A stretch of 64,000 bases of DNA from an uncultured Roseobacter sp. (GTDB lineage: Bacteria; Pseudomonadota; Alphaproteobacteria; Rhodobacterales; Rhodobacteraceae): assembly GCF_947499265.1 (NCBI RefSeq), contig NZ_CANMNK010000005.1, forward strand, positions 244,173-308,172. The letters run 5' to 3'. The notes under the pieces were generated by a model that saw only the letters and a list, made by a program, of their open reading frames with translations, searched no databases and had not been told where the DNA came from. Positions 43,502-53,042 of this stretch are shown piece after piece. The position numbers and the translations under genes are program-made. The stretch's first letter is position 1, and every line of letters starts with the position of its first letter.

Positions 43502-43576
43502 TGGGATGTAGCCAAGTGGTAAGGCAACTGTTTTTGGTACAGTGTACCGTAGGTTCGAATCCTACCATCCCAGCCA
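43502..43576 (+). tRNA. tRNA-Gln (anticodon TTG)
   Basis: Cloverleaf read by hand. Acceptor TGGGATG/CATCCCA; D-arm GCC-AAGTGGTAA-GGC; anticodon arm ACTGT-TTTTGGT-ACAGT (TTG); T-arm GTAGG-TTCGAAT-CCTAC; discriminator G; encoded CCA. 75 nt. Confidence 0.93.
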
Positions 43577-44625: not shown

Positions 44626-44651
44626 TAACGCAGTGATTGATTTATCGAACA

Positions 44652-45554
44652 ATGAGCAGAAGTAATTTTGGAGATATCCGCGTCTTTGTCGAAGTTGCCC
44701 GCAGCGGTGGTTTCCGCGCTGCTGCCGAACACCTTCATCAGGCCCCGGCGTCGGTGAGTGAAGCTATTCAGCGGTTTGAAAACAGGCTTGGCGTGCGTCT
44801 CTTTGAGCGTTCCACGCGATCGGTTGCACTAACCCCAATCGGGGAGCAGTTCTATGCGCGCAGCTTACCGGCAATAGCAGAGCTGGAGGGCGCAATGCGC
44901 GATCTCGACGATCAGAAGGATGAAATCAACGGCACGCTGCGCCTGTCTGCCCCTTACAGCGCCGGACCGTTTTTTCTGGATGATCTAGTTGCCCGGTTTG
45001 CTGCCGCCTACCCGGCGGTCGATCTCGAGCTGATCTATGACGACAAAAAGGTTGATCTGCTGACATCGGGCATTGATGCAGCCATCCGATCAAACACGTT
45101 GCTTCACCCTGACACCCATGCGGTTGCCGTTGGTCCTGAGCTGTCAATGAGCATCGTGGCATCGCAGGCCTATCTTGCAACCAAGGGTGTTCCACAACAA
45201 CCGCGCGACGTTCTGGACCACGACGCGATTTGCTATGCCTTCGGGGCCGGAGGGCATCATGCCCCTTGGGGTTTCACTGGACCCGACGGACCATTCACCA
45301 TGCAGCCGAAGCCCAGACTGGTCGCGAACGACATGCGGTCCCTTTTGCACTACGCGCGCCACGGACTTGGCCTCGCATATGTCTACGCGGAGATCGCAGC
45401 GCCATATGTCACGAACGACGGCTTGGTTGAAGTGCTCGGCGAACATCTGTCGTCTTTGCCGCGTTACTCGCTCAACTACCGCAGCAAACGGCATATGACA
45501 CGTCGGCTTAGAGCCTTCGTGGACATGGCGAAAGAAGGCAAAACAATCTACTGA
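44652..45554 (+). CDS. LysR-family transcriptional regulator
   Basis: HTH FGDIRVFVEVARSGGFRAAAEHLHQAPASVSEAIQRFENRLGVRLFERSTR and a substrate-binding domain. Start trimmed to ATG 44652. Confidence 0.9.
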   Translation: MSRSNFGDIRVFVEVARSGGFRAAAEHLHQAPASVSEAIQRFENRLGVRLFERSTRSVALTPIGEQFYARSLPAIAELEGAMRDLDDQKDEINGTLRLSAPYSAGPFFLDDLVARFAAAYPAVDLELIYDDKKVDLLTSGIDAAIRSNTLLHPDTHAVAVGPELSMSIVASQAYLATKGVPQQPRDVLDHDAICYAFGAGGHHAPWGFTGPDGPFTMQPKPRLVANDMRSLLHYARHGLGLAYVYAEIAAPYVTNDGLVEVLGEHLSSLPRYSLNYRSKRHMTRRLRAFVDMAKEGKTIY

Positions 45555-45590: not shown

Positions 45591-45992
45591 ATGGTCGGAG
45601 AGACAAACCTTAACGCGCTGATCAAATCGCTATCTGCTGTGCTGCACGACGGCGTGTTCGTCTTTGCCACGTGCCCGCCGCACCAGCCTATTCCTGACAT
45701 TGCACCCCGCATGATGTTTCAGGAGGCCGAAGGCACGACCCTTATTCTGCTCAAATCCGAAGCCGAAGCTCATTCGCTCCGGTTCGAGTTTCCATGTCGA
45801 ATGATCACGCTCAACATACATTCTTCCCTCGAAGCCGTCGGGTTTATGGCTGTTATCGCGTCTGAGTTGGCAAAGCATGATATGGGTGTAAATCCTGTTT
45901 CTGGATTTTTCCACGATCACTTGTTTGTCCCTGACGGGCGGGAAAAAGAGGCGGTTGACGCGTTGGAAAACCTCGCCCACTCCATGTCGTGA
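45591..45992 (+). CDS. ACT-domain protein (DUF2241-like)
   Basis: 133 aa. ...HDGVFVFAT...EAEGTTLIL...VGFMAVIASELAKHDMGVNPVSGFFHDHLFVP matches the small ACT-domain family. GGAG RBS. Confidence 0.7.
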   Translation: MVGETNLNALIKSLSAVLHDGVFVFATCPPHQPIPDIAPRMMFQEAEGTTLILLKSEAEAHSLRFEFPCRMITLNIHSSLEAVGFMAVIASELAKHDMGVNPVSGFFHDHLFVPDGREKEAVDALENLAHSMS

Positions 45993-46071
45993 CGCAAACA
46001 CCGTCGGATCAGCCCTCCACACGATGCCGTCGAACTTCTGGTGCGGAACAAATGCCGTTTATTGAGTTATC

Positions 46072-46095
46072 TTGACTGCAACGTCGAGCAGTCAA
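46072..46095. promoter_or_regulatory. Perfect 8-8-8 palindromic element TTGACTGC-aacgtcga-GCAGTCAA
   Basis: Read directly from the sequence. It lies in the non-coding leader, 80 bp after the ACT gene and about 215 bp before the five-gene operon. No T-tract follows, so an operator or RNA hairpin is more likely than a terminator. Confidence 0.4.
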
Positions 46096-46310
46096 AGCGC
46101 ATTTCGGCGTAAGGCATAAGCCGGACATACCTAAGGTATCAGTCGCCTGGCCTCTTGGAATGTTGCAGCGACGCCTTTTTCCTTTGGACAAACCTATCCG
46201 CAGCCATAAAACTGCAAAGACCTGCTTCCCACTCAAGCAGGGAAGACCGAGGTTTGCGTGAGCGCCTCGAAAGACCTTGAGCAGGCTGAATAAACTTTGA
46301 GGATTTGTGC

Positions 46311-47264
46311 ATGTCCGGACTTGTCCGTGCGTTGTTTCAATCAGAACTTGATTTGACCCTCGCGACGGGCAAGCAGTTTGAAACGCGGATTGTTGAGCGG
46401 CCTGGGCTGTGGATGTCAGAAGATGAGCTGGCGGCTCTGTCTCAGGACCTGATCACGGTTGCCTCAAAGACCCTGGCGCGCGGCGCGCTGACCTATGGCG
46501 TTTTCTCGGGTGATCCGGAGCGGCTGAAATCCACGATCATCACACTTGTGCGGCGCAAGGATACCGGACAGCCGGTTGCGTTCAACGCGCTGGCCTTGAT
46601 GGACATCACCACGATGGCCGAACCGATGGAGGTTCTGCATCTGGGACTGGTTATGGTCGATCCGGAGGAGCAATCCCGGGGATTGTCCTGGGTCCTCTAT
46701 GGTCTGACCTGCATCTTGTTGCTCTTCCGCAATCAGATGCGCCCGCTGTGGGTCTCCAATGTCACGCAGGTGCCGGCCATCGTCGGCATGGTCGCGGAAA
46801 CCTTCAGCGGTGTTTTCCCGACGCCCCGGCGGCAGAGGCAACGGTCGCTTCAGCATCTGCTGCTTGCCCGGACGATCATGGCAGACCACCGACACGTGTT
46901 CGGGGTCGGGGGCGATGCCGAGTTTGACGAGGATCGCTTTGTGATCACCAATGCCTATACAGGCGGCTCGGACGATCTGAAAAAGACGTTTGAAGAAGCC
47001 CCCCACCACCGCGATCAGGTTTACAACGACTTCTGTCAGCAGACGCTGGACTATGACCGGGGCGATGACGTGTTACAGCTCGGCCAGATCGATCTGGCAA
47101 CAGCAGTCGGGTATCTGAAGAATTCGGTGCCCAGAGCCTCGCTGGCCAGTGTGGGTTTGACCCTTGTGGCCGTGATGCTGCAGCGGTTGATCTTGCCCGC
47201 CATCTACTGGTTCGACAACAGCCGCCGCTTTGGCACCTTGCGCCCGCGAAAGGACCCAGCTTGA
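46311..47264 (+). CDS. Hypothetical protein, tentatively GNAT-fold acyltransferase (operon gene 1)
   Basis: ATG 46311 has a GAGGA RBS 8 nt upstream. The segment VLHLGLVMVDPEEQSRGLSWVLY resembles GNAT beta4-alpha3 (Q-x-x-G-x-S/A). 317 aa. Confidence 0.7.
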   Translation: MSGLVRALFQSELDLTLATGKQFETRIVERPGLWMSEDELAALSQDLITVASKTLARGALTYGVFSGDPERLKSTIITLVRRKDTGQPVAFNALALMDITTMAEPMEVLHLGLVMVDPEEQSRGLSWVLYGLTCILLLFRNQMRPLWVSNVTQVPAIVGMVAETFSGVFPTPRRQRQRSLQHLLLARTIMADHRHVFGVGGDAEFDEDRFVITNAYTGGSDDLKKTFEEAPHHRDQVYNDFCQQTLDYDRGDDVLQLGQIDLATAVGYLKNSVPRASLASVGLTLVAVMLQRLILPAIYWFDNSRRFGTLRPRKDPA

Positions 47265-48130
47265 CCTTCTCCTACGATACTTTCACGACGCGCAATATCG
47301 GCTTTGTCACCCCGGAGGAGCAAGCAACCCTGCGCGCCGCACAGGTGTTTGTGTGCGGGACAGGCGGCATGGGCGGCGCCTGTGTCTTTGCGCTGGCCCG
47401 GATGGGCGTGGGGCGGCTGATCCTCGCGGACATCGATGAATTCGAGACATCGAACCTGAACCGTCAGGCCTTTGCCTTTCGCGACACCATCGGGCAGCAC
47501 AAGGCCGAGGCGACGCGCGACCTATGCCTGCAAATAAACCCCGACATGGAGATCACGGTGTATCGCGACGATTGGCCCGCGCATGTGCAAGGCGCGACGG
47601 CTGCGAGTGCAATCGTCGTCAATGGCACTGATGATCTCGGTGCCTCGCTTTTGCTCTATCGCACAGCGCGGGCCGAACACCGGGCGGTGATCGACGCCTA
47701 TGCCTCGCCGCTGCCATCAGTCTACGTCACGCAGCCGGGAGATCCGATGCCGGAAGAGCGGTTGCGATACCCCACAGGTGATACCCCCTGGGATGCACTG
47801 ACCCAGGATCAGCGAGACGAAGCTTTTTTCCGCGAGGCAACACATGTGATCCTGCATTCTTCGTCGCGTCACTATATCGATCTCGATCTGGCAGGCGAGG
47901 TCGCGGCAGGCAAACGCAGCCGCATGTCCTTTGCCCCGATGGTAATCTCGACGGGCATGCTGATGGCCTATGAAGTGGCCAATGGCATTTTGGGCCGCCC
48001 GCCGGGGGCGGACTATCGGGGCTGGTTCTTCAACCCGCACGCGGCACGGGTCGAGCGCCCACGGAGCGCAATCACCGAAGCCCTCTTGCGACCGGTGGTG
48101 ACACGCTTTTTGCGCCGTATGATGGCATGA
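47261..48130 (+). CDS. ThiF/MoeB/HesA (E1-like) family adenylyltransferase (operon gene 2)
   Basis: AAQVFVCGTGGMGGACVFALARMGVGRLILADIDEFETSNLNRQ is the Rossmann/ATP-binding E1 signature. TTG start overlaps the upstream stop (TTGA). No CxxC pairs. Confidence 0.85.
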   Translation: MTFSYDTFTTRNIGFVTPEEQATLRAAQVFVCGTGGMGGACVFALARMGVGRLILADIDEFETSNLNRQAFAFRDTIGQHKAEATRDLCLQINPDMEITVYRDDWPAHVQGATAASAIVVNGTDDLGASLLLYRTARAEHRAVIDAYASPLPSVYVTQPGDPMPEERLRYPTGDTPWDALTQDQRDEAFFREATHVILHSSSRHYIDLDLAGEVAAGKRSRMSFAPMVISTGMLMAYEVANGILGRPPGADYRGWFFNPHAARVERPRSAITEALLRPVVTRFLRRMMA

Positions 48131-49335
48131 CAGGTCTTCCCCCCGAAATGATTGCCGACAGCGTCGTCACGCTGGCAAGCCTGATCGGTCTGGCCCTATT
48201 TGCGCAGGTTTTGCGCATGCAGCAGCCGCGCACCGCGATCACACAGCGGTTCTTGTTTGTGATTCAGGTGGTGGCCGCATTGCTCGCCATCCGCCTGTTG
48301 CAGTGGCTGACCGGTATGGAGTGGATCGGACGCCTGACCTTTGCCGTGGCTGGCCTTGTCCCGCTGGCCATGCTTCTGGTGACTGAAACACTACTGCGCC
48401 GCCATGCGCCGCTGGCCTTGAAAGCCTGGGCGGCTGGAGGTGCGCTTCTTTTTGCGTTGGTGGCCATGCTCGCCGGCCCAGATCAGGCCCTTGTGGCCAC
48501 CGTTTCGCTGGCCGTCTTTCAGGTGACGACCTTTGTCGCGCTCACCCTCCTTGTGCTGGGTCGGGACCGGCAAAGCCTGTCAGTCGCTGAAAACACCATG
48601 ATCGACCGATTGGCGCTGTCTCTGGTCTTGATCGTGCCGCTGGCGATGACGGATTTCCGAACCGAGTTTCTCGACCTCCCGGTACGGCTGTCGGGGATTG
48701 CCATTCTCGCAGTATGCTGGCTTGGCCTGACGCTCCGGCGCAGCGATGCAACGCAGTCGGAGGTCATCTCGGCGACGGCGGCTCTTGTTGTTGGCCTGGT
48801 CTTTGCGTCCCTTTGCATCATGGAACTCGCCGGGCTTGATGCGCGCACCACAGTGCAGGTGATGGCGGTTGTTGTGAGTGTGGGTTTACTGGCCCTGATT
48901 TTCAATCAAGCCCGTCTTATCAGACGCGCGGATAAGGTCGGGCGAGTTCTAGACGTTCTGGCTGACACGCGGCTGGACGAGCATGGCGCGTTCCTGCAAG
49001 CGCTGCAAACGCGGGCGCTGACCTCCGGCGCGCTGATTCTGGGCGCTGACGGTCTGGGGGATTTCGATGCGGCATTCCAAGATTATTTTTTGCGCCAAAC
49101 CCTCGTGTCCTCCGACGATCTCGACCAGCTTGACAACCCTCAGCTGACTGAGCAATTCGACTGGTTCTTTCGCAAGTTTGAGGCCAGCCATGCGATGCTG
49201 GTCTCAAAGGCTCCGTTTCGCATCATGGCGCTGAATGTGCCGACACTCGCGCAATCGAGGCAGCTGGAACAGGAATTGAGGATTGCACAGCGCATTGCGA
49301 CCCTGCTGGCCGAACGGGGCGTGTCACATGGTTGA
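48127..49335 (+). CDS. Polytopic membrane protein (about 8-9 TM) with soluble C-terminal domain of about 150 aa (operon gene 3)
   Basis: 402 aa. ATGA overlap with gene 2. Successive hydrophobic helices run to about residue 255, then a hydrophilic C-terminal region. No family recognised. Confidence 0.75.
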   Translation: MTGLPPEMIADSVVTLASLIGLALFAQVLRMQQPRTAITQRFLFVIQVVAALLAIRLLQWLTGMEWIGRLTFAVAGLVPLAMLLVTETLLRRHAPLALKAWAAGGALLFALVAMLAGPDQALVATVSLAVFQVTTFVALTLLVLGRDRQSLSVAENTMIDRLALSLVLIVPLAMTDFRTEFLDLPVRLSGIAILAVCWLGLTLRRSDATQSEVISATAALVVGLVFASLCIMELAGLDARTTVQVMAVVVSVGLLALIFNQARLIRRADKVGRVLDVLADTRLDEHGAFLQALQTRALTSGALILGADGLGDFDAAFQDYFLRQTLVSSDDLDQLDNPQLTEQFDWFFRKFEASHAMLVSKAPFRIMALNVPTLAQSRQLEQELRIAQRIATLLAERGVSHG

Positions 49336-50413
49336 GATCGTTGAACGCGATTTCCCGTCTTTCTTCGAGGTGCCGTTTCAGGCCTATGATGCAAGCACGC
49401 CCTATGTCTCGCCGCTGAAATCGGACCTGAAGCGTTTTTTGACGGCAGGCACCAATCCTTTGTTTCCAAGCGATGATGCCTTCACCTATTTTACCGCCCG
49501 TCGCGGCGATCGTCCGCTGGGCCGGATCGTGGTGCATACGCATGCCGCCTCGAACGAGCTGCACGGGACGAACCGCGCCTCTTTTGGGTTTTTCGACTGC
49601 GATGATGACGCGCAAATTGCCGCCGCTCTATTGCAAAGAGCCGAGGCCTGGGCGCGCGAAAGGAAGCACAACGAACTCGTTGGCAATTTTAACCTCACGG
49701 CCATGCAGCAGATGGGTGTGCAGACCGATCATTTCGACCGGGTCCCCTATACGGATATGGTGGTGAACCCGCCGCATATCCCCGATTTGCTTGGCCAGAA
49801 CGGATTTGCGCCCTTCTTTCCGATGACGACCTTTGAATTGGATCTGGCCCGGGCCACCATCCCGCCGTCGCAGCTGGGGCCGGATACAACCTTTGCCCCG
49901 GTCAAGCGCAAAACCTTTGCGGCCCGTATGGAAGAGGCGCGGCAGGTGCTCAACGACGGGTTTTCGCAAAATCCGATGTTCGTGCCACTGACGGCGGAGG
50001 AGTTCACCTTTCAGGCGGGCGAAATGACAACCATCATCGATCCCCGGCTATCCGCCGTTCTGACCCAGGGTGATACCCCTGTCGGTGTGGTCATCTGCAT
50101 TCCCGACCTGAATGGATTCCTCAAGGCGACACGCTCGCGGTTCTCGCTGATGACACCGTTTCATTTCCTGCGCTATCGGTTGCGGCGCAAACGCGCGGTG
50201 ATCATCTTCTATTCGGTTGTCAAAGCCAGCCATGGGCGCGGGCTGATGAGCGCCATTCTGTCCCGCACCCTGACCCAACTGCGCGAGGCGGGCTACGACC
50301 ATCTTGGGATCACCTGGATTGCCGATGAAAACCAGGCATCCCTGAGGATGATGTCCAAGATCGGGGCCACGCCCTTGCACCGCCTGCACCTGTTCAGGAA
50401 AGATCTTGCATGA
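49328..50413 (+). CDS. Large GNAT-family N-acyltransferase-like protein (operon gene 4)
   Basis: 361 aa from ATG 49328 (ATGGTTGA overlap). The layout ...NPLF...GRIVVH...FGFFDCDDD...AEAWARERK... plus C-terminal VVKASHGRGLMSAIL matches a widespread, uncharacterised ~370-aa GNAT family as I remember it. Confidence 0.75.
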   Translation: MVEIVERDFPSFFEVPFQAYDASTPYVSPLKSDLKRFLTAGTNPLFPSDDAFTYFTARRGDRPLGRIVVHTHAASNELHGTNRASFGFFDCDDDAQIAAALLQRAEAWARERKHNELVGNFNLTAMQQMGVQTDHFDRVPYTDMVVNPPHIPDLLGQNGFAPFFPMTTFELDLARATIPPSQLGPDTTFAPVKRKTFAARMEEARQVLNDGFSQNPMFVPLTAEEFTFQAGEMTTIIDPRLSAVLTQGDTPVGVVICIPDLNGFLKATRSRFSLMTPFHFLRYRLRRKRAVIIFYSVVKASHGRGLMSAILSRTLTQLREAGYDHLGITWIADENQASLRMMSKIGATPLHRLHLFRKDLA

Positions 50414-51387
50414 CACCTGATCTCTTTCGGCATCTGGTGGCGCAAGCCAGTCTTGCGCCCAGTGTTCACAACGTGCAACCCGCCCGCTGGCGGCTTGAGG
50501 GCGAGACGGTCTGGTTGTTTGAAGATCAGCGGGTGCGTCTGTCAGCGGCAGACCCCACGGGTCATGATGCGGCGATGAGCCTGGGTGCGGCCTTTGAGGG
50601 GATGGCGATGGCTGCGGCGCAAGAGGACTTGCGCATCTCTCTTGACCCAGTGGGTGAGGACAGCACAGGGGATGTGCGCCCCGTCGCCCGCCTGACCTTC
50701 ACCCCGGGTGCCACCGAGGATCCGCTGGTCCAGCATGTGGCCGCGCGACAAAGCTGGCGCGGCGATTTCGCAACGGCCACAGACGAGGACAGGCAAACCG
50801 CAGAGGCTCTGACAGACGCGGATTGCATCGCGGTCACTGGCCCCCATACGATCCGCGTCATTGCGAAACTGTTGGACATGGCCAGTTTCACGTTCACGGT
50901 ACGAGACGACTTTCGTGCGGAGCTTCTGTCGTGGATGCGGTTGCGGCGCGGTCACCCTGATTGGGGACGCGACGGGTTGAACGCGGATGCGATGCGCCTT
51001 GGGGTCTTCGACAGGATCGGTGCCAAGGTCGTGCTGGGGCGCGGCTTCAGGCCGCTGCTGAGGTGCGGGCTTGCGGAAAAGCTCCTGTCTGAGGAGGAAA
51101 AGACGGCAGGGGCGGCAGCCATTGTGGTGTTTCACCGCCCCGAGGGTGAAGACCCGTTTGACAGCGGTCGCGCCTTCTATCGGGCGTGGCTCAGGATTGA
51201 AGCGGCTGGCTTTGGGGCGGCTGTTCTGGCCGCACTGGCGGATGATCCAACGAGTGCCGAGACGTTGGCTGCGATGGCAGATTTGCCCGAGGGCCGTCGC
51301 ATCGTCTCCGCGTTCCGCATCGGTCGTCGTCAGCAGCATGCGCCGTTTCCACCTGCACGTCGGTCATTGGACGAGCTGGTCGTCTAA
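50410..51387 (+). CDS. Nitroreductase-fold protein, double-length (Acg-like tandem type) (operon gene 5)
   Basis: ASLAPSVHNVQPARWRL resembles the S.HN.QPW nitroreductase motif. At 325 aa it is about twice a canonical nitroreductase monomer. ATGA overlap with gene 4. Confidence 0.75.
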   Translation: MTPDLFRHLVAQASLAPSVHNVQPARWRLEGETVWLFEDQRVRLSAADPTGHDAAMSLGAAFEGMAMAAAQEDLRISLDPVGEDSTGDVRPVARLTFTPGATEDPLVQHVAARQSWRGDFATATDEDRQTAEALTDADCIAVTGPHTIRVIAKLLDMASFTFTVRDDFRAELLSWMRLRRGHPDWGRDGLNADAMRLGVFDRIGAKVVLGRGFRPLLRCGLAEKLLSEEEKTAGAAAIVVFHRPEGEDPFDSGRAFYRAWLRIEAAGFGAAVLAALADDPTSAETLAAMADLPEGRRIVSAFRIGRRQQHAPFPPARRSLDELVV

Positions 51388-53042
51388 AGCTGCTTGAGAA
51401 ATTCAATCAATGCGCTTTTATCCGCCTCGCTGAGTGTCGCGCCAAAGTCATGACCGCCGTTGCCAAGGCCGGGGTGCGTTGTGTCCAGAATGACCGGCTT
51501 GGAAAAGGGGGCGTAATCGAACGGATATCGCCCGTCTTGCAAACGCAGGCCCAAACGCGTGAAGTCGAGCATGTGGCCGCCCACTTCAAACGTCTCGGGC
51601 CGCTGATCCGGGGTCAGCAGATGCCATACCGTTGGGACCGATCCGTTGTGCAGATAAGGGGCCGACGCCCAGATGCCGTCCAGAGGCGGCGCGACATAGG
51701 CCTCGGTGCGCGCCACCGCAATCTGGTCGCGATAAGGCGTATCCCGAAATGTGTCGGCAAGGTCTTCGGTGAAGGCCGCGGCCCTGAGCGGATCGGTTCC
51801 AACATCGCCGAGCCAGTTCGGGAAGGAGATCAGCTTCGGTCGCCCATTTTCGACATCGTAGGCGCCGTGACAGGCGGCACATTCGGCGGCATAGATCGCG
51901 TGTCCTGCCAAGGCCAGATTATTATCAATCACCCCTGGAAAGGGCTGCGACCTGTAGGTGCTGTTCAGAAATGCATAGATGTCTTCGGCCAAAGGCACGG
52001 CCTCGATGGCTTTGCTAGGGTGCACACCCATACTGGGCACGGTGAAGAAGGTCGTAATCGCGGCCAAAGCGGCCCGCTTTTCAGCTGTGTTATCCGCGAC
52101 TGTAGTCTCCGCCTGCCGTTCGGTCTGTGGCACCGCATAGGCGCCATCAACCAGAAGACTGCTGCGCCAGTGCCGATGCCCCAGATCAGGGATGGACACG
52201 ATGCCTGCATCGGCAAGACCGTCCCCAAAGAGCGGCACATCAAAAACATGCTTGAGCGCCGCAACCCCGTTGGTACTGCCCGGGACACCATTGAAAAACG
52301 GCAAAGGACGGTCGCCCGGGATCTGATCCAGGCGCGCCCGCACCATGAGCAGGACGAGCCACCGCAGCGCCTGCCGCTCGCGCCAACCTGTTTCCGGATA
52401 GAGCGTTGCCACCATCTCCATCAATCTGGCCGGCGCGTCCTGATAAGCCTTGAGCGTCCGAAAGACCGCCTGTGTATAGGCTTCAAGGTTCAGTGACGTA
52501 TTGGGCATCCCGATCCATGCGGCGGTTGGATTGGGCTGACCATCGGTGCGATAGGTGACACCGGCATGACAGGCAGCGCATCCCATATTGGCGACTTGCA
52601 CGGGCAGTCCAGCCAGGGGTGACAGCACACCATGCGTGATACCCAAGGGCAGTGCGTCCGATCGATCCGACACGCCTTCTGGCATGTTCTGAACCCGCGT
52701 CTGCACCAGAAATCCAAATGAGGCCAGCAGATTGTTTAGCGTTTTACGATCCGCCGATTGCGTGGGATCTCCATCAACGGCCTCCAACACAAGAGCTGCT
52801 GTTACCAGCTTCCACGGCACCGCGTGGCTTTCCAAGGCGTGCAGGCTCAATCCACCAAAATCCGCCCCAACAAAAGCCGCAGCCCCGCGTTCCGCCGGAC
52901 CAGCGTCTGCTTCAACGGCGGGCATCGCGTCCGAGCCGACCTCATGACGCGCCCCGAACCAGAGCGCGGCTGCCGTCACGACCACGATGGCCCCAATTGC
53001 CAGAACTATCCGCTGCATGAGATGTCCGATTTCGAAAGCCAC
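51384..53042 (-). CDS. Membrane-anchored di-heme c-type cytochrome (CCP/MauG-like putative peroxidase/oxidoreductase)
   Basis: Two CxxCH motifs (GCAACHAGV; ECAACHGAY), PPLDGIWASAPYLHNGSVPTVWHLL, and N-terminal TM IVLAIGAIVVVTAAALWF. The start may be ATG 53018 instead of GTG 53042. Confidence 0.8.
   Translation of the reverse strand: MAFEIGHLMQRIVLAIGAIVVVTAAALWFGARHEVGSDAMPAVEADAGPAERGAAAFVGADFGGLSLHALESHAVPWKLVTAALVLEAVDGDPTQSADRKTLNNLLASFGFLVQTRVQNMPEGVSDRSDALPLGITHGVLSPLAGLPVQVANMGCAACHAGVTYRTDGQPNPTAAWIGMPNTSLNLEAYTQAVFRTLKAYQDAPARLMEMVATLYPETGWRERQALRWLVLLMVRARLDQIPGDRPLPFFNGVPGSTNGVAALKHVFDVPLFGDGLADAGIVSIPDLGHRHWRSSLLVDGAYAVPQTERQAETTVADNTAEKRAALAAITTFFTVPSMGVHPSKAIEAVPLAEDIYAFLNSTYRSQPFPGVIDNNLALAGHAIYAAECAACHGAYDVENGRPKLISFPNWLGDVGTDPLRAAAFTEDLADTFRDTPYRDQIAVARTEAYVAPPLDGIWASAPYLHNGSVPTVWHLLTPDQRPETFEVGGHMLDFTRLGLRLQDGRYPFDYAPFSKPVILDTTHPGLGNGGHDFGATLSEADKSALIEFLKQL

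Follow-up and report, generated by a model that had tools for sequence, protein, structure and literature searches.

In the described oxazolone pathways, an acyltransferase provides an N-acyl amino acid, a ThiF-like enzyme adenylates its carboxylate and closes the oxazolone ring, and a flavin-dependent oxidase (FDO) together with O2 desaturates the C-alpha to C-beta bond. These pathways include OxzA/OxzB of Pseudoalteromonas rubra, with a fused ThiF-nitroreductase (bioRxiv 10.1101/2020.06.11.147165); TyzA/TyzB/TyzC of Mycobacterium tuberculosis, responsible for N-acyl tyrazolone biosynthesis (PMC10404671); and TrzA/TrzS of mycobacteria (Rv1356c/Rv1355c), an oxazolone synthetase with a fused ThiF-nitroreductase (PMC12856293). 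In addition, N-acyl-dehydrotyrosine clusters combining NasY, ThiF, and nitroreductase genes occur in Thalassotalea, Massilia, and Stieleria, and their products are the thalassotalic and kyonggic acids and the stieleriacines (PMC12479983). Acid, methanol, and ethanol destroy oxazolones (PMC12856293). In a 2025 review, OxzB was still the sole ThiF-like enzyme listed as acting on a small molecule (PMC12596934). Here we analyze a block of five plus-strand genes, numbered g1 to g5 in order, at positions 46311 to 51387 of a 64,000-nucleotide stretch of a contig from an uncultured Roseobacter sp. (GCA_947494605.1); this whole stretch is referred to as the window, and all positions are window positions.

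The original prediction for this block, made from the sequence alone, was that it matches no named system. That claim does not stand, as a ThiF enzyme, a nitroreductase-superfamily flavin oxidase, and an N-acyltransferase form the defining triad of OxzAB, TyzACB, TrzAS, and the N-acyl-dehydrotyrosine clusters. The block therefore belongs to a named kind of system, and yet it is not a plain member of the oxazolone pathways, because g2 and g5 fall below the curated cutoffs, the GNATs match no N-acyl amino acid synthase, and g1 and g3 have no family. The pathway type (ThiF plus FDO plus N-acyltransferase) is known already; what is new here is a split ThiF and Acg-type FDO pair joined to a membrane GNAT system and, in many genomes, to a RoxA-like cytochrome. 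No publication describing this five-gene block was found in the literature that was searched. Our preferred reading, to which we give slightly less than an even chance, is that the block is a cluster for a membrane-associated molecule of the N-acylated amino acid type, tailored by oxazolone-type chemistry. The features concerned are as follows.

Non-coding leader before g1, 45993-46310, + strand: ribosome-binding site GAGGA at 46298-46302
g1, 46311-47264, + strand: 317 aa, ATG start; GNAT-fold acyltransferase from a family without annotation; hydrophobic helix at the C terminus
g2, 47261-48130, + strand: 289 aa, TTG start; ThiF/E1-like ATP-dependent adenylating enzyme, putative cyclase
g3, 48127-49335, + strand: 402 aa; polytopic membrane protein of an unannotated family, about nine helices plus a C-terminal alpha/beta domain
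g4, 49328-50413, + strand: 361 aa; C-terminal GNAT acyltransferase domain after about 190 N-terminal aa; optional module
g5, 50410-51387, + strand: 325 aa; Acg-type single-chain flavin-dependent oxidase (FDO subgroup, nitroreductase superfamily)
RoxA-like diheme cytochrome c, 51384-53042, - strand: 552 aa; convergent with g5, stop codons overlapping

The coordinates of the five same-strand open reading frames (ORFs) and all four overlapping junctions (TTGA at g1/g2, ATGA at g2/g3, ATGGTTGA at g3/g4, and ATGA at g4/g5) were reproduced, as was the GAGGA ribosome-binding site, which lies 8 nucleotides upstream of the g1 start. The same five genes are present in the NCBI gene calls of the source contig.

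Comparison with described pathways

The Tyz, Oxz, and Trz proteins were compared by means of proxies, namely, NCBIfam models and fusion proteins from a representative search. Like the block, TyzACB has separate genes for a ThiF-like cyclase of about 290 to 320 aa without sulfur-transfer features and for a single-chain Acg-like FDO of about 325 to 370 aa, an adjoining acyltransferase that Pfam does not recognize (TyzA, a 322-aa “hypothetical protein”; g1, 317 aa), and a membrane protein gene alongside (mmpL9 there, g3 here). The two differ in that g2 and g5 lie outside the curated TyzB/OxzB-type families, that TyzA is reported to resemble FeeM and acyl-homoserine lactone (AHL) synthases whereas g1 resembles ordinary GNATs, and that the genes of the block are all translationally coupled on one strand. 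Further, TyzACB has no counterpart to the second GNAT, to the nine-helix protein between the enzymes, or to the RoxA-like cytochrome.

OxzAB and TrzAS share with the block the pairing of the two catalytic domains, and fusions of this kind are among the nearest non-orthologous relatives of g2. However, the domains are fused in those systems, whereas here they are separate, with g3 (and g4 in the five-gene form) between them, and the block holds no OxzA-type N-acyltransferase. The N-acyl-dehydrotyrosine clusters resemble the block in their operon-like, overlapping acyltransferase, ThiF, and nitroreductase-family genes and in their occurrence in aquatic and soil Pseudomonadota; the product isolated from their producers is a dehydro-amino acid whose ring has been opened, and the block could have such an end product as well. 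Unlike the block, they contain a recognizable N-acyl amino acid synthase and tailoring methyltransferases and have no g1/g3 pair, g4, or RoxA-like cytochrome.

Two further likenesses concern single proteins. The mycobacterial proteins Acg (Rv2032), Rv3131, and MsAcg resemble g5, for which Acg is the best curated family and PDB entry 2YMV gives a whole-length alignment; Acg and Rv3131 are orphan FDOs of the mycobacterial dormancy regulon, whereas g5 is coupled to a ThiF enzyme and GNATs. RoxA is a rubber oxygenase, a diheme c-type cytochrome dioxygenase. The convergent neighbor of g5 has in common with it a PF21419 domain and two CxxCH motifs but is membrane anchored, linked to a ThiF cluster, and found in bacteria not known to degrade rubber.

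Conservation and nested gene content

At least 370 g1 loci were found in the genome collection, and the best 80 of these were examined together with the source contig (n = 81). g3 adjoins g1 in 80 of the 81 loci. All five genes are present in window order in 37 loci, 15 carry g1-g2-g3-g5 without g4, and 24 carry g1-g3 alone; the remaining five are truncated contigs or single exceptions (L032 and L070). g2 and g5 are both present in 52 loci, both absent from 24, and discordant in 2, and g4 is restricted to loci with g2 and g5 (37 loci). Gene content is nested, from g1 and g3, to these with g2 and g5, then with g4, and then with the RoxA-like gene. As g1 and g3 are next to each other in 80 of 81 loci and g2 and g5 are absent from 24, the invariant core of the block is g1 plus g3 and not the ThiF enzyme. 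The first description of an operon “built around” the ThiF enzyme was thus right in seeing a conserved, co-occurring block but missed this core.

The five-gene unit that had been proposed is well supported by its neighborhoods, with its order and overlapping junctions recurring in Ensifer, Bosea, and Brevundimonas and kept in Bosea and Brevundimonas even at great distance (g3 28% and 25% identical, respectively). This arrangement is far beyond chance, and the operon is conserved in marine roseobacters, rhizobia, and relatives. In Mesorhizobium, the same Aas-like gene comes after the block whether it has five genes (L021 and L027), four (L026), or two (L039 and L051); hence, g2, g4, and g5 have been gained or lost in place, and recently. 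On an Ensifer plasmid, the RefSeq labels of g1 to g5 are, in order, hypothetical, ThiF family adenylyltransferase, hypothetical, GNAT family N-acetyltransferase, and hypothetical.

The Aas-like protein (MFS plus PlsC acyltransferase plus AMP-binding domains) lies beside the block in Ensifer, Rhizobium, Mesorhizobium, and Bosea, and genes for PspA, YiaAB, and a TetR regulator are found near it and the block (L082, 14167-18650; L083, 621-5158). This neighborhood may reflect a link to membrane-lipid homeostasis, or it may be only inherited gene order. Taken as a functional link, it favors an alternative in which g2 and g5 remodel a resident aminolipid, such as ornithine or glutamine lipid, via its free alpha-carboxylate, which would be activated for an amide or ester or else cyclized and desaturated, while g1 and g4 would re-acylate the lipid and g3 would hold it; the product would be a modified envelope lipid and not a diffusible metabolite. 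Ornithine and glutamine lipids, as N-acyl amino acids whose carboxylate is free, are known from Rhodobacterales and Hyphomicrobiales, to which the hosts of the block belong, and the core proteins of the block are membrane proteins. The occurrence of the Aas-like lysophospholipid acyltransferase, PspA, and YiaAB next to the block in Ensifer, Bosea, and many Rhizobiales loci, as well as a ThiF-PlsC fusion among the relatives of g2, is also in keeping with this alternative. However, the loci showed no ols or gls gene, the neighborhood links fall within one order and could be explained by shared ancestry of gene order, and g1 plus g3 also occur without any ThiF gene in 24 loci. We consider aminolipid remodeling unlikely. 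Xylose and glycerate-kinase-like genes beside the two-gene form were taken as inherited order, being confined to Yoonia, Loktanella, and related Rhodobacteraceae.

The ThiF-like enzyme

g2 matches the ThiF family PF00899 (2.6e-29) and carries the expected E1/ThiF ATP-binding signature (VCGTGGMGG...DIDEFETSNLNRQ); its only cysteines are at residues 32, 41, and 89, with no CxxC, so that the lack of zinc-binding pairs and of late cysteines had been read correctly. Among its nearest non-orthologues are the ThiF-nitroreductase fusions P0258, P0269, and P0309 (85 to 95 bits, 35 to 38% identity from residue 1), of which P0269 is 38% identical over residues 1 to 166, and the N-terminal motif Y..F..RN.G.V.P.EQ..L is common to g2 and these fusions. 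TcdA, ThiF, and MoeB reach 50 to 53 bits, compared with the 85 to 95 bits of the fusions, and g2 lies below every housekeeping cutoff (PRK08644, 87.9 bits versus 159; TIGR02356, 73.6 versus 275; PRK05690, 73.4 versus 266; PRK15116, 56.2 versus 304), in agreement with the earlier view of g2 as a non-housekeeping ThiF protein.

The E1 domain is also the one thing that the block has in common with systems of ubiquitin-like protein (Ubl) conjugation, including anti-phage systems of the Cap2, 6A-MBL, or Bil-like kind: PADLOC E1-E2 models match g2 at up to 2.6e-15, and NF058523 (cap2_3) matches it at 6e-10. Nevertheless, g1, g3, g4, and g5 match no PADLOC model, no E2, JAB, Ubl, ThiS, or MoaD family was found within ±10 kb of the operon, and g2 has no catalytic Cys or CxxC and scores far under the ThiF, MoeB, and TcdA cutoffs. 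The PADLOC, neighborhood, cysteine, and score tests effectively refute the defense, Ubl, and housekeeping readings, to which we assign next to no probability. YcaO and beta-grasp Ubl families were likewise missing from the same ±10 kb, just as the absence of YcaO, beta-grasp Ubl, JAB, and E2 had been claimed.

g2 has recognizable relatives in MccB and PaaA (E = 4e-9 and 7e-11, respectively), but microcin C, pantocin, and McbBC, the systems first used for comparison, are more distant than the oxazolone pathways. They suggest an alternative in which the block modifies a ribosomal peptide or a protein C terminus, with g2 adenylating it, g5 dehydrogenating it, the GNATs serving in immunity or tailoring, and g3 exporting the product. 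Ribosomal peptide systems are known to include GNATs for immunity (MccE) and dehydrogenases of the nitroreductase fold (McbC). Against this, residue 21 of g2 aligns with residues 110 to 113 of MccB and residue 127 of PaaA; because g2 starts directly with the Rossmann domain, it is without the N-terminal peptide-binding (peptide-clamp) domain of those enzymes. The junctions all overlap, leaving no space where a precursor could be encoded, the unconserved leader has no common small ORF, and g5 is an Acg-type FDO and not a McbC-type dehydrogenase. In addition, g1, g3, and g5 have variable C termini, and 15 of the loci with g2 and g5 lack g4; on these grounds a protein C terminus was rejected as the ThiF substrate. 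Overall, we regard modification of a ribosomal peptide or protein as highly improbable.

Several further architectures occur among the relatives of g2 (P0252, P0313, P0201, P0204, and P0283), including a fusion to a PlsC-type acyltransferase (P0252), a fusion to an S-adenosylmethionine methyltransferase, a tandem double ThiF, and a nitroreductase-ThiF in reverse order. The ThiF clade that surrounds g2 is diverse in architecture and, for the most part, unexplored.

The Acg-type oxidase and the second GNAT

The nitroreductase-type start noted earlier in g5 is present (SVHNVQPARW), and its double-length (tandem) nitroreductase fold agrees with the end-to-end alignment of the g5 orthologue profile with Acg of Mycobacterium smegmatis (PDB 2YMV; profile of 24 orthologues, residues 4-323, E = 1e-17). 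g5 also matches NF047509, the Acg family FMN-binding oxidoreductase model, at 9.4e-41 (140.3 bits versus a cutoff of 199), with residues 9-323 aligned to model positions 2-318/319. Judged from its sequence, g5 is a clear relative of the Acg family and yet outside NF047509 membership by the NCBI threshold. Matches to the nitroreductase parts of PRK07877 (Rv1355c/TrzS family, 3.9e-15) and PRK14851 (1.7e-12) were found as well. g5 is thus predicted to be what an FDO in such a pathway has to be, i.e., a nitroreductase-superfamily flavin oxidase encoded in the same operon as a ThiF gene.

Residues 238-346 of g4 match PF00583 (6.6e-9, 36.5 bits versus a cutoff of 20.7). This C-terminal GNAT domain is found in all of the 20 g4 orthologues, as the earlier GNAT-like assignment of the gene implied, while PF13480 is matched in 11 of the 20 (best, 2.6e-5). 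The C terminus of g4 is semiconserved, ending ...F(R/S)K.L. A duplicated “double GNAT” was not supported (hhalign of the N-terminal half versus the C-terminal half, probability of 5.5%).

g1 and g3, the conserved core

g1 has no Pfam or NCBIfam family match, and sub-threshold GNAT matches were obtained in 5 of 18 orthologues. Its AlphaFold (AF2) model (mean predicted local distance difference test [pLDDT] score, 80) retrieves GNATs from the PDB in Foldseek at a probability of 1.00, namely, NatD (4ua3; E = 1.8e-5), PA3270, Rv0998, and PaiA, so the GNAT-like nature claimed for g1 is upheld at the level of the fold, though without a sequence family. A CoA-loop-like motif, QSRGLS, lies at residues 121-126, with S126 invariant and G124 nearly invariant, and hydrophobic 19-mers span residues 276-301, corresponding to the C-terminal helix. 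Based on the modeled fold and on QSRGLS as the acyl-CoA-binding beta4-alpha3 loop, g1 is predicted to be a member of the GNAT superfamily. There are 2,776 homologues of g1 in the databases, and every one is labeled “hypothetical.” A paralogous origin of g1 and g4 was rejected, as profile-profile comparison aligned the GNAT CoA-loop region only, with a probability of <1%.

No sequence family was found for g3 in Pfam and NCBIfam searches, and sequence-profile searches of g1 and g3 against the PDB returned nothing meaningful. The AF2 model of g3 (pLDDT, 82) has nine long helices and a C-terminal alpha/beta domain, in accordance with the eight to nine transmembrane helices and soluble tail first seen in the gene. 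Conserved motifs of g3 include LLRRHAP, RDRxSLSxAEN, TDFR, PVRLSG, and H355, and the charged motifs LLRRHAP and RDRxSLSxAEN lie in loops assigned to the cytoplasmic side by the helix pattern. This position suggests that g3 may offer the enzymes a site for binding or catalysis instead of serving as a passive channel.

Foldseek of the g3 model against the PDB gave no match at E ≤ 1e-3, and its only similarities were to seven-transmembrane (7TM) bundles of the G-protein-coupled receptor type (best E, 8e-3; TM score, about 0.3 to 0.5). Together with weak 7TMR-DISM_7TM matches in 2 of 23 g3 homologues (0.013) and the conserved cytoplasmic alpha/beta domain, they raise the alternative that g3 is a sensor resembling 7TM receptors and that the block is a signaling or regulatory module in which the GNATs and the ThiF/FDO pair would make or modify a signal, or would modify a protein, when a cue arises in the membrane or periplasm. 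None of these 7TM matches reaches significance, however; no known output domain (such as a kinase, GGDEF, or HD domain) is matched by the C-terminal domain; and a gene translationally coupled to those of four enzymes is more to be expected in a biosynthetic pathway. A sensor module is accordingly a quite improbable explanation.

The RoxA-like cytochrome and other heme proteins

The product of the gene at 51384-53042 matches PF21419 (2.6e-23, 81.7 bits versus a cutoff of 26.7) and cytochrome c domains and has a predicted N-terminal transmembrane segment (residues 3-32) and two CxxCH motifs (Cys 155/158 and 388/391). These features identify it as a predicted RoxA-like diheme cytochrome c, an assignment that does not imply rubber-oxygenase activity. 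Of the 34 five-gene loci with enough sequence, 20 have a convergent RoxA-like gene 3 to 345 bp past g5, and none of the shorter forms of the block among the 81 loci has such a gene beside it; a homologue is also present in Brevundimonas (L084, 10118-11779). Further, an 833-aa metagenomic protein (P0187) fuses a g2-like ThiF domain (44% identity) through a hydrophobic linker or transmembrane segment to a RoxA-like domain, and a g4-like gene lies before it; the only source of this protein is one short contig (Logan assembly of ERR4592245), and it needs checking. The fused homologue scores far below the RoxC equivalog model. The RoxA-like cytochrome is a probable sixth, periplasmic component of the system, one that the original prediction missed.

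In 6 of the 15 four-gene loci, a convergent gene for a CCP/MauG-type diheme peroxidase follows the block instead. Genes of this type were found just downstream of g5 in L025, L030, L044, L050, L055, L058, and L070, the last of which is a g1-g3-g5 locus. The similarity between the RoxA-like and CCP/MauG-type proteins is marginal (25% over 193 aa; E = 2e-4).

A proposed pathway

We infer the substrates, the order in which the steps occur, and what g3, g4, and the cytochrome do in the scheme that follows, which elaborates our preferred reading of the block as a cluster for a membrane-associated molecule of the N-acylated amino acid type. The membrane-anchored GNAT g1 would transfer an acyl group from an acyl-thioester to an amine that also bears a carboxylate, most simply an amino acid; this N-acylation step is proposed because of the GNAT fold and CoA-loop motif. 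g1 would work at the cytoplasmic face together with g3, which may be a scaffold, flippase, or exporter. g2 would then adenylate the free carboxylate with ATP, whereupon the amide oxygen would close a 5(4H)-oxazolone ring without a cysteine thioester, a mode of cyclization suggested by family membership and the absence of the catalytic Cys. g5, by virtue of its FDO family, would add a C-alpha to C-beta double bond in an FMN- and O2-dependent reaction, giving an unsaturated azlactone or, if the ring is opened, an N-acyl-dehydroamino acid. Where present, g4 might carry out a further acyl transfer on the product of g5, and the RoxA-like cytochrome might oxidize the exported product in the periplasm; for these last two steps, the sole basis is the nested occurrence pattern.

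The nested gene content and the occurrence of the Mesorhizobium versions at one site fit the addition of tailoring steps to a g1/g3 product, and the Aas-like, PspA, and YiaAB neighbors in Ensifer and Bosea, together with the ThiF-PlsC and ThiF-RoxA-like fusions, provide links to membrane lipid genes that favor the proposed cluster. Also in its favor are the triad itself, the closeness of g2 to ThiF-nitroreductase fusions compared with TcdA, ThiF, and MoeB, the Acg-type FDO character of g5 over its full length, the joint gain and loss of g2 and g5, and the GNAT nature of g1 (by fold, with a hydrophobic C-terminal helix) and of g4 (by sequence). The best NCBIfam match of g2, PRK08223, which we infer to be the TyzB-type family, points the same way, as its cutoff is exceeded both by fusions of ThiF and nitroreductase and by stand-alone ThiF proteins of 317 aa. 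This best explanation is in accord with the initial guess, in which an amino-acid-derived molecule undergoes activation of its carboxylate and acyl transfer, with a partner in the membrane.

Several observations weigh against it. g2 itself reaches 114.6 bits with PRK08223, versus a cutoff of 266, and matches it over residues 2-125 only; it scores 71.9 bits with PRK14851 and 37.7 bits with PRK07877. The likeness of g2 to OxzB-like proteins spans the N-terminal 170 or so residues, i.e., the Rossmann part common to all ThiF enzymes, and its C-terminal 120 or so residues, which are probably substrate binding, are specific to its own family. g5 scores higher on the Acg/Rv3131 profile than on TrzS- or OxzB-type profiles and is about 22% identical to the OxzB-like nitroreductase domain, and for Acg/Rv3131-type FDOs, neither ThiF coupling nor a substrate has been reported (PMC10404671). 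In Pfam and NCBIfam, g1 and g4 match no known N-acyl amino acid synthase family; FeeM (2G0B) and the AHL synthase BjaI (5W8C) are outside the top 50 Foldseek matches of g1; and Foldseek of the g3 model against the PDB revealed no recognizable transporter fold.

A more far-reaching version of this proposal is that g1 and g3 constitute an unrecognized membrane acyltransferase system which, with the optional ThiF, Acg-type FDO, GNAT, and RoxA-like modules, makes envelope-associated lipids of a new class (dehydro-amino-acid or azlactone lipids) in a pathway from cytoplasm to periplasm. We hold this version to be doubtful, but if it is true, such an envelope lipid class in roseobacters, rhizobia, and caulobacters would provide the first substrate context for Acg-type flavin oxidases and the first for RoxA-like cytochromes outside rubber degradation.

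Significance

Documentation of ThiF/FDO oxazolone chemistry is so far limited to a few systems: those of P. rubra and mycobacteria and, on comparative genomic evidence, those of Thalassotalea, Massilia, and Stieleria. The block would extend it to marine roseobacters and plant-associated rhizobia, both of which are ecologically important, and would provide a testable context for two unannotated families, g1 and g3. It couples an Acg-type oxidase, whose mycobacterial relatives are without known substrate, to defined partner enzymes in tractable bacteria, and it links a RoxA-like heme protein to a cytoplasmic pathway. A ready comparative experiment is offered by strains that naturally carry five genes (e.g., Ensifer adhaerens and Roseibium sp. 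TrichSKD4), four (Octadecabacter ascidiaceicola and Mesorhizobium neociceri), or two (Yoonia maritima and Mesorhizobium caraganae), in some cases in a single genus. The block is thus a well-defined experimental lead with natural module variants and not a categorical surprise.

Leader, genomic setting, and minor observations

The leader at 45993-46310 is unconserved, with a mean column identity of 45% (alignment A4) among relatives whose proteins are 78 to 87% identical. No conserved small ORF was found when the leader was checked across these relatives, in line with the reported absence of a convincing precursor peptide; an Rfam search of the leader gave no match, and its inspection for a promoter gave no convincing consensus. 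A conserved leader peptide or riboswitch was therefore rejected. In Brevundimonas, a 63-aa ORF without a family lies between a PepSY_TM gene and g1 (L084, 4794-4985; L085, 136-327); as no other lineage showed it, it is unlikely to be a precursor peptide.

The block had been placed in an accessory stretch next to tRNA-Gln, but tRNA-Gln(TTG), at 43502-43576 upstream of the operon, is 2.7 kb and four genes away, and no integrase or transposase family was found within ±10 kb. G+C content is 0.57 to 0.62 over the operon and the cytochrome gene, 0.61 to 0.64 at 36 to 43 kb, 0.54 to 0.555 at 43 to 46 kb, and 0.52 to 0.555 beyond 53 kb. With no mobility genes in that interval and no low-G+C signature over the block, a genomic island at tRNA-Gln is not supported. 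The flanking genes vary between genera, and hence the block moves or is rearranged, although this in itself does not show an island.

Directly upstream and on the same strand as the operon are genes for a LysR-family regulator (44637-45554) and a small tandem-ACT-domain protein (45591-45992). A LysR homologue adjoins the block in only a few other loci (L007 and L063), and a regulatory link is unproven. Long minus-strand ORFs antisense to the operon genes (46464-47009, 47717-48040, and 50542-51339) recur in other loci and are best explained, rather than as genes, as shadow ORFs of high-G+C coding sequence conserved along with the sense genes.

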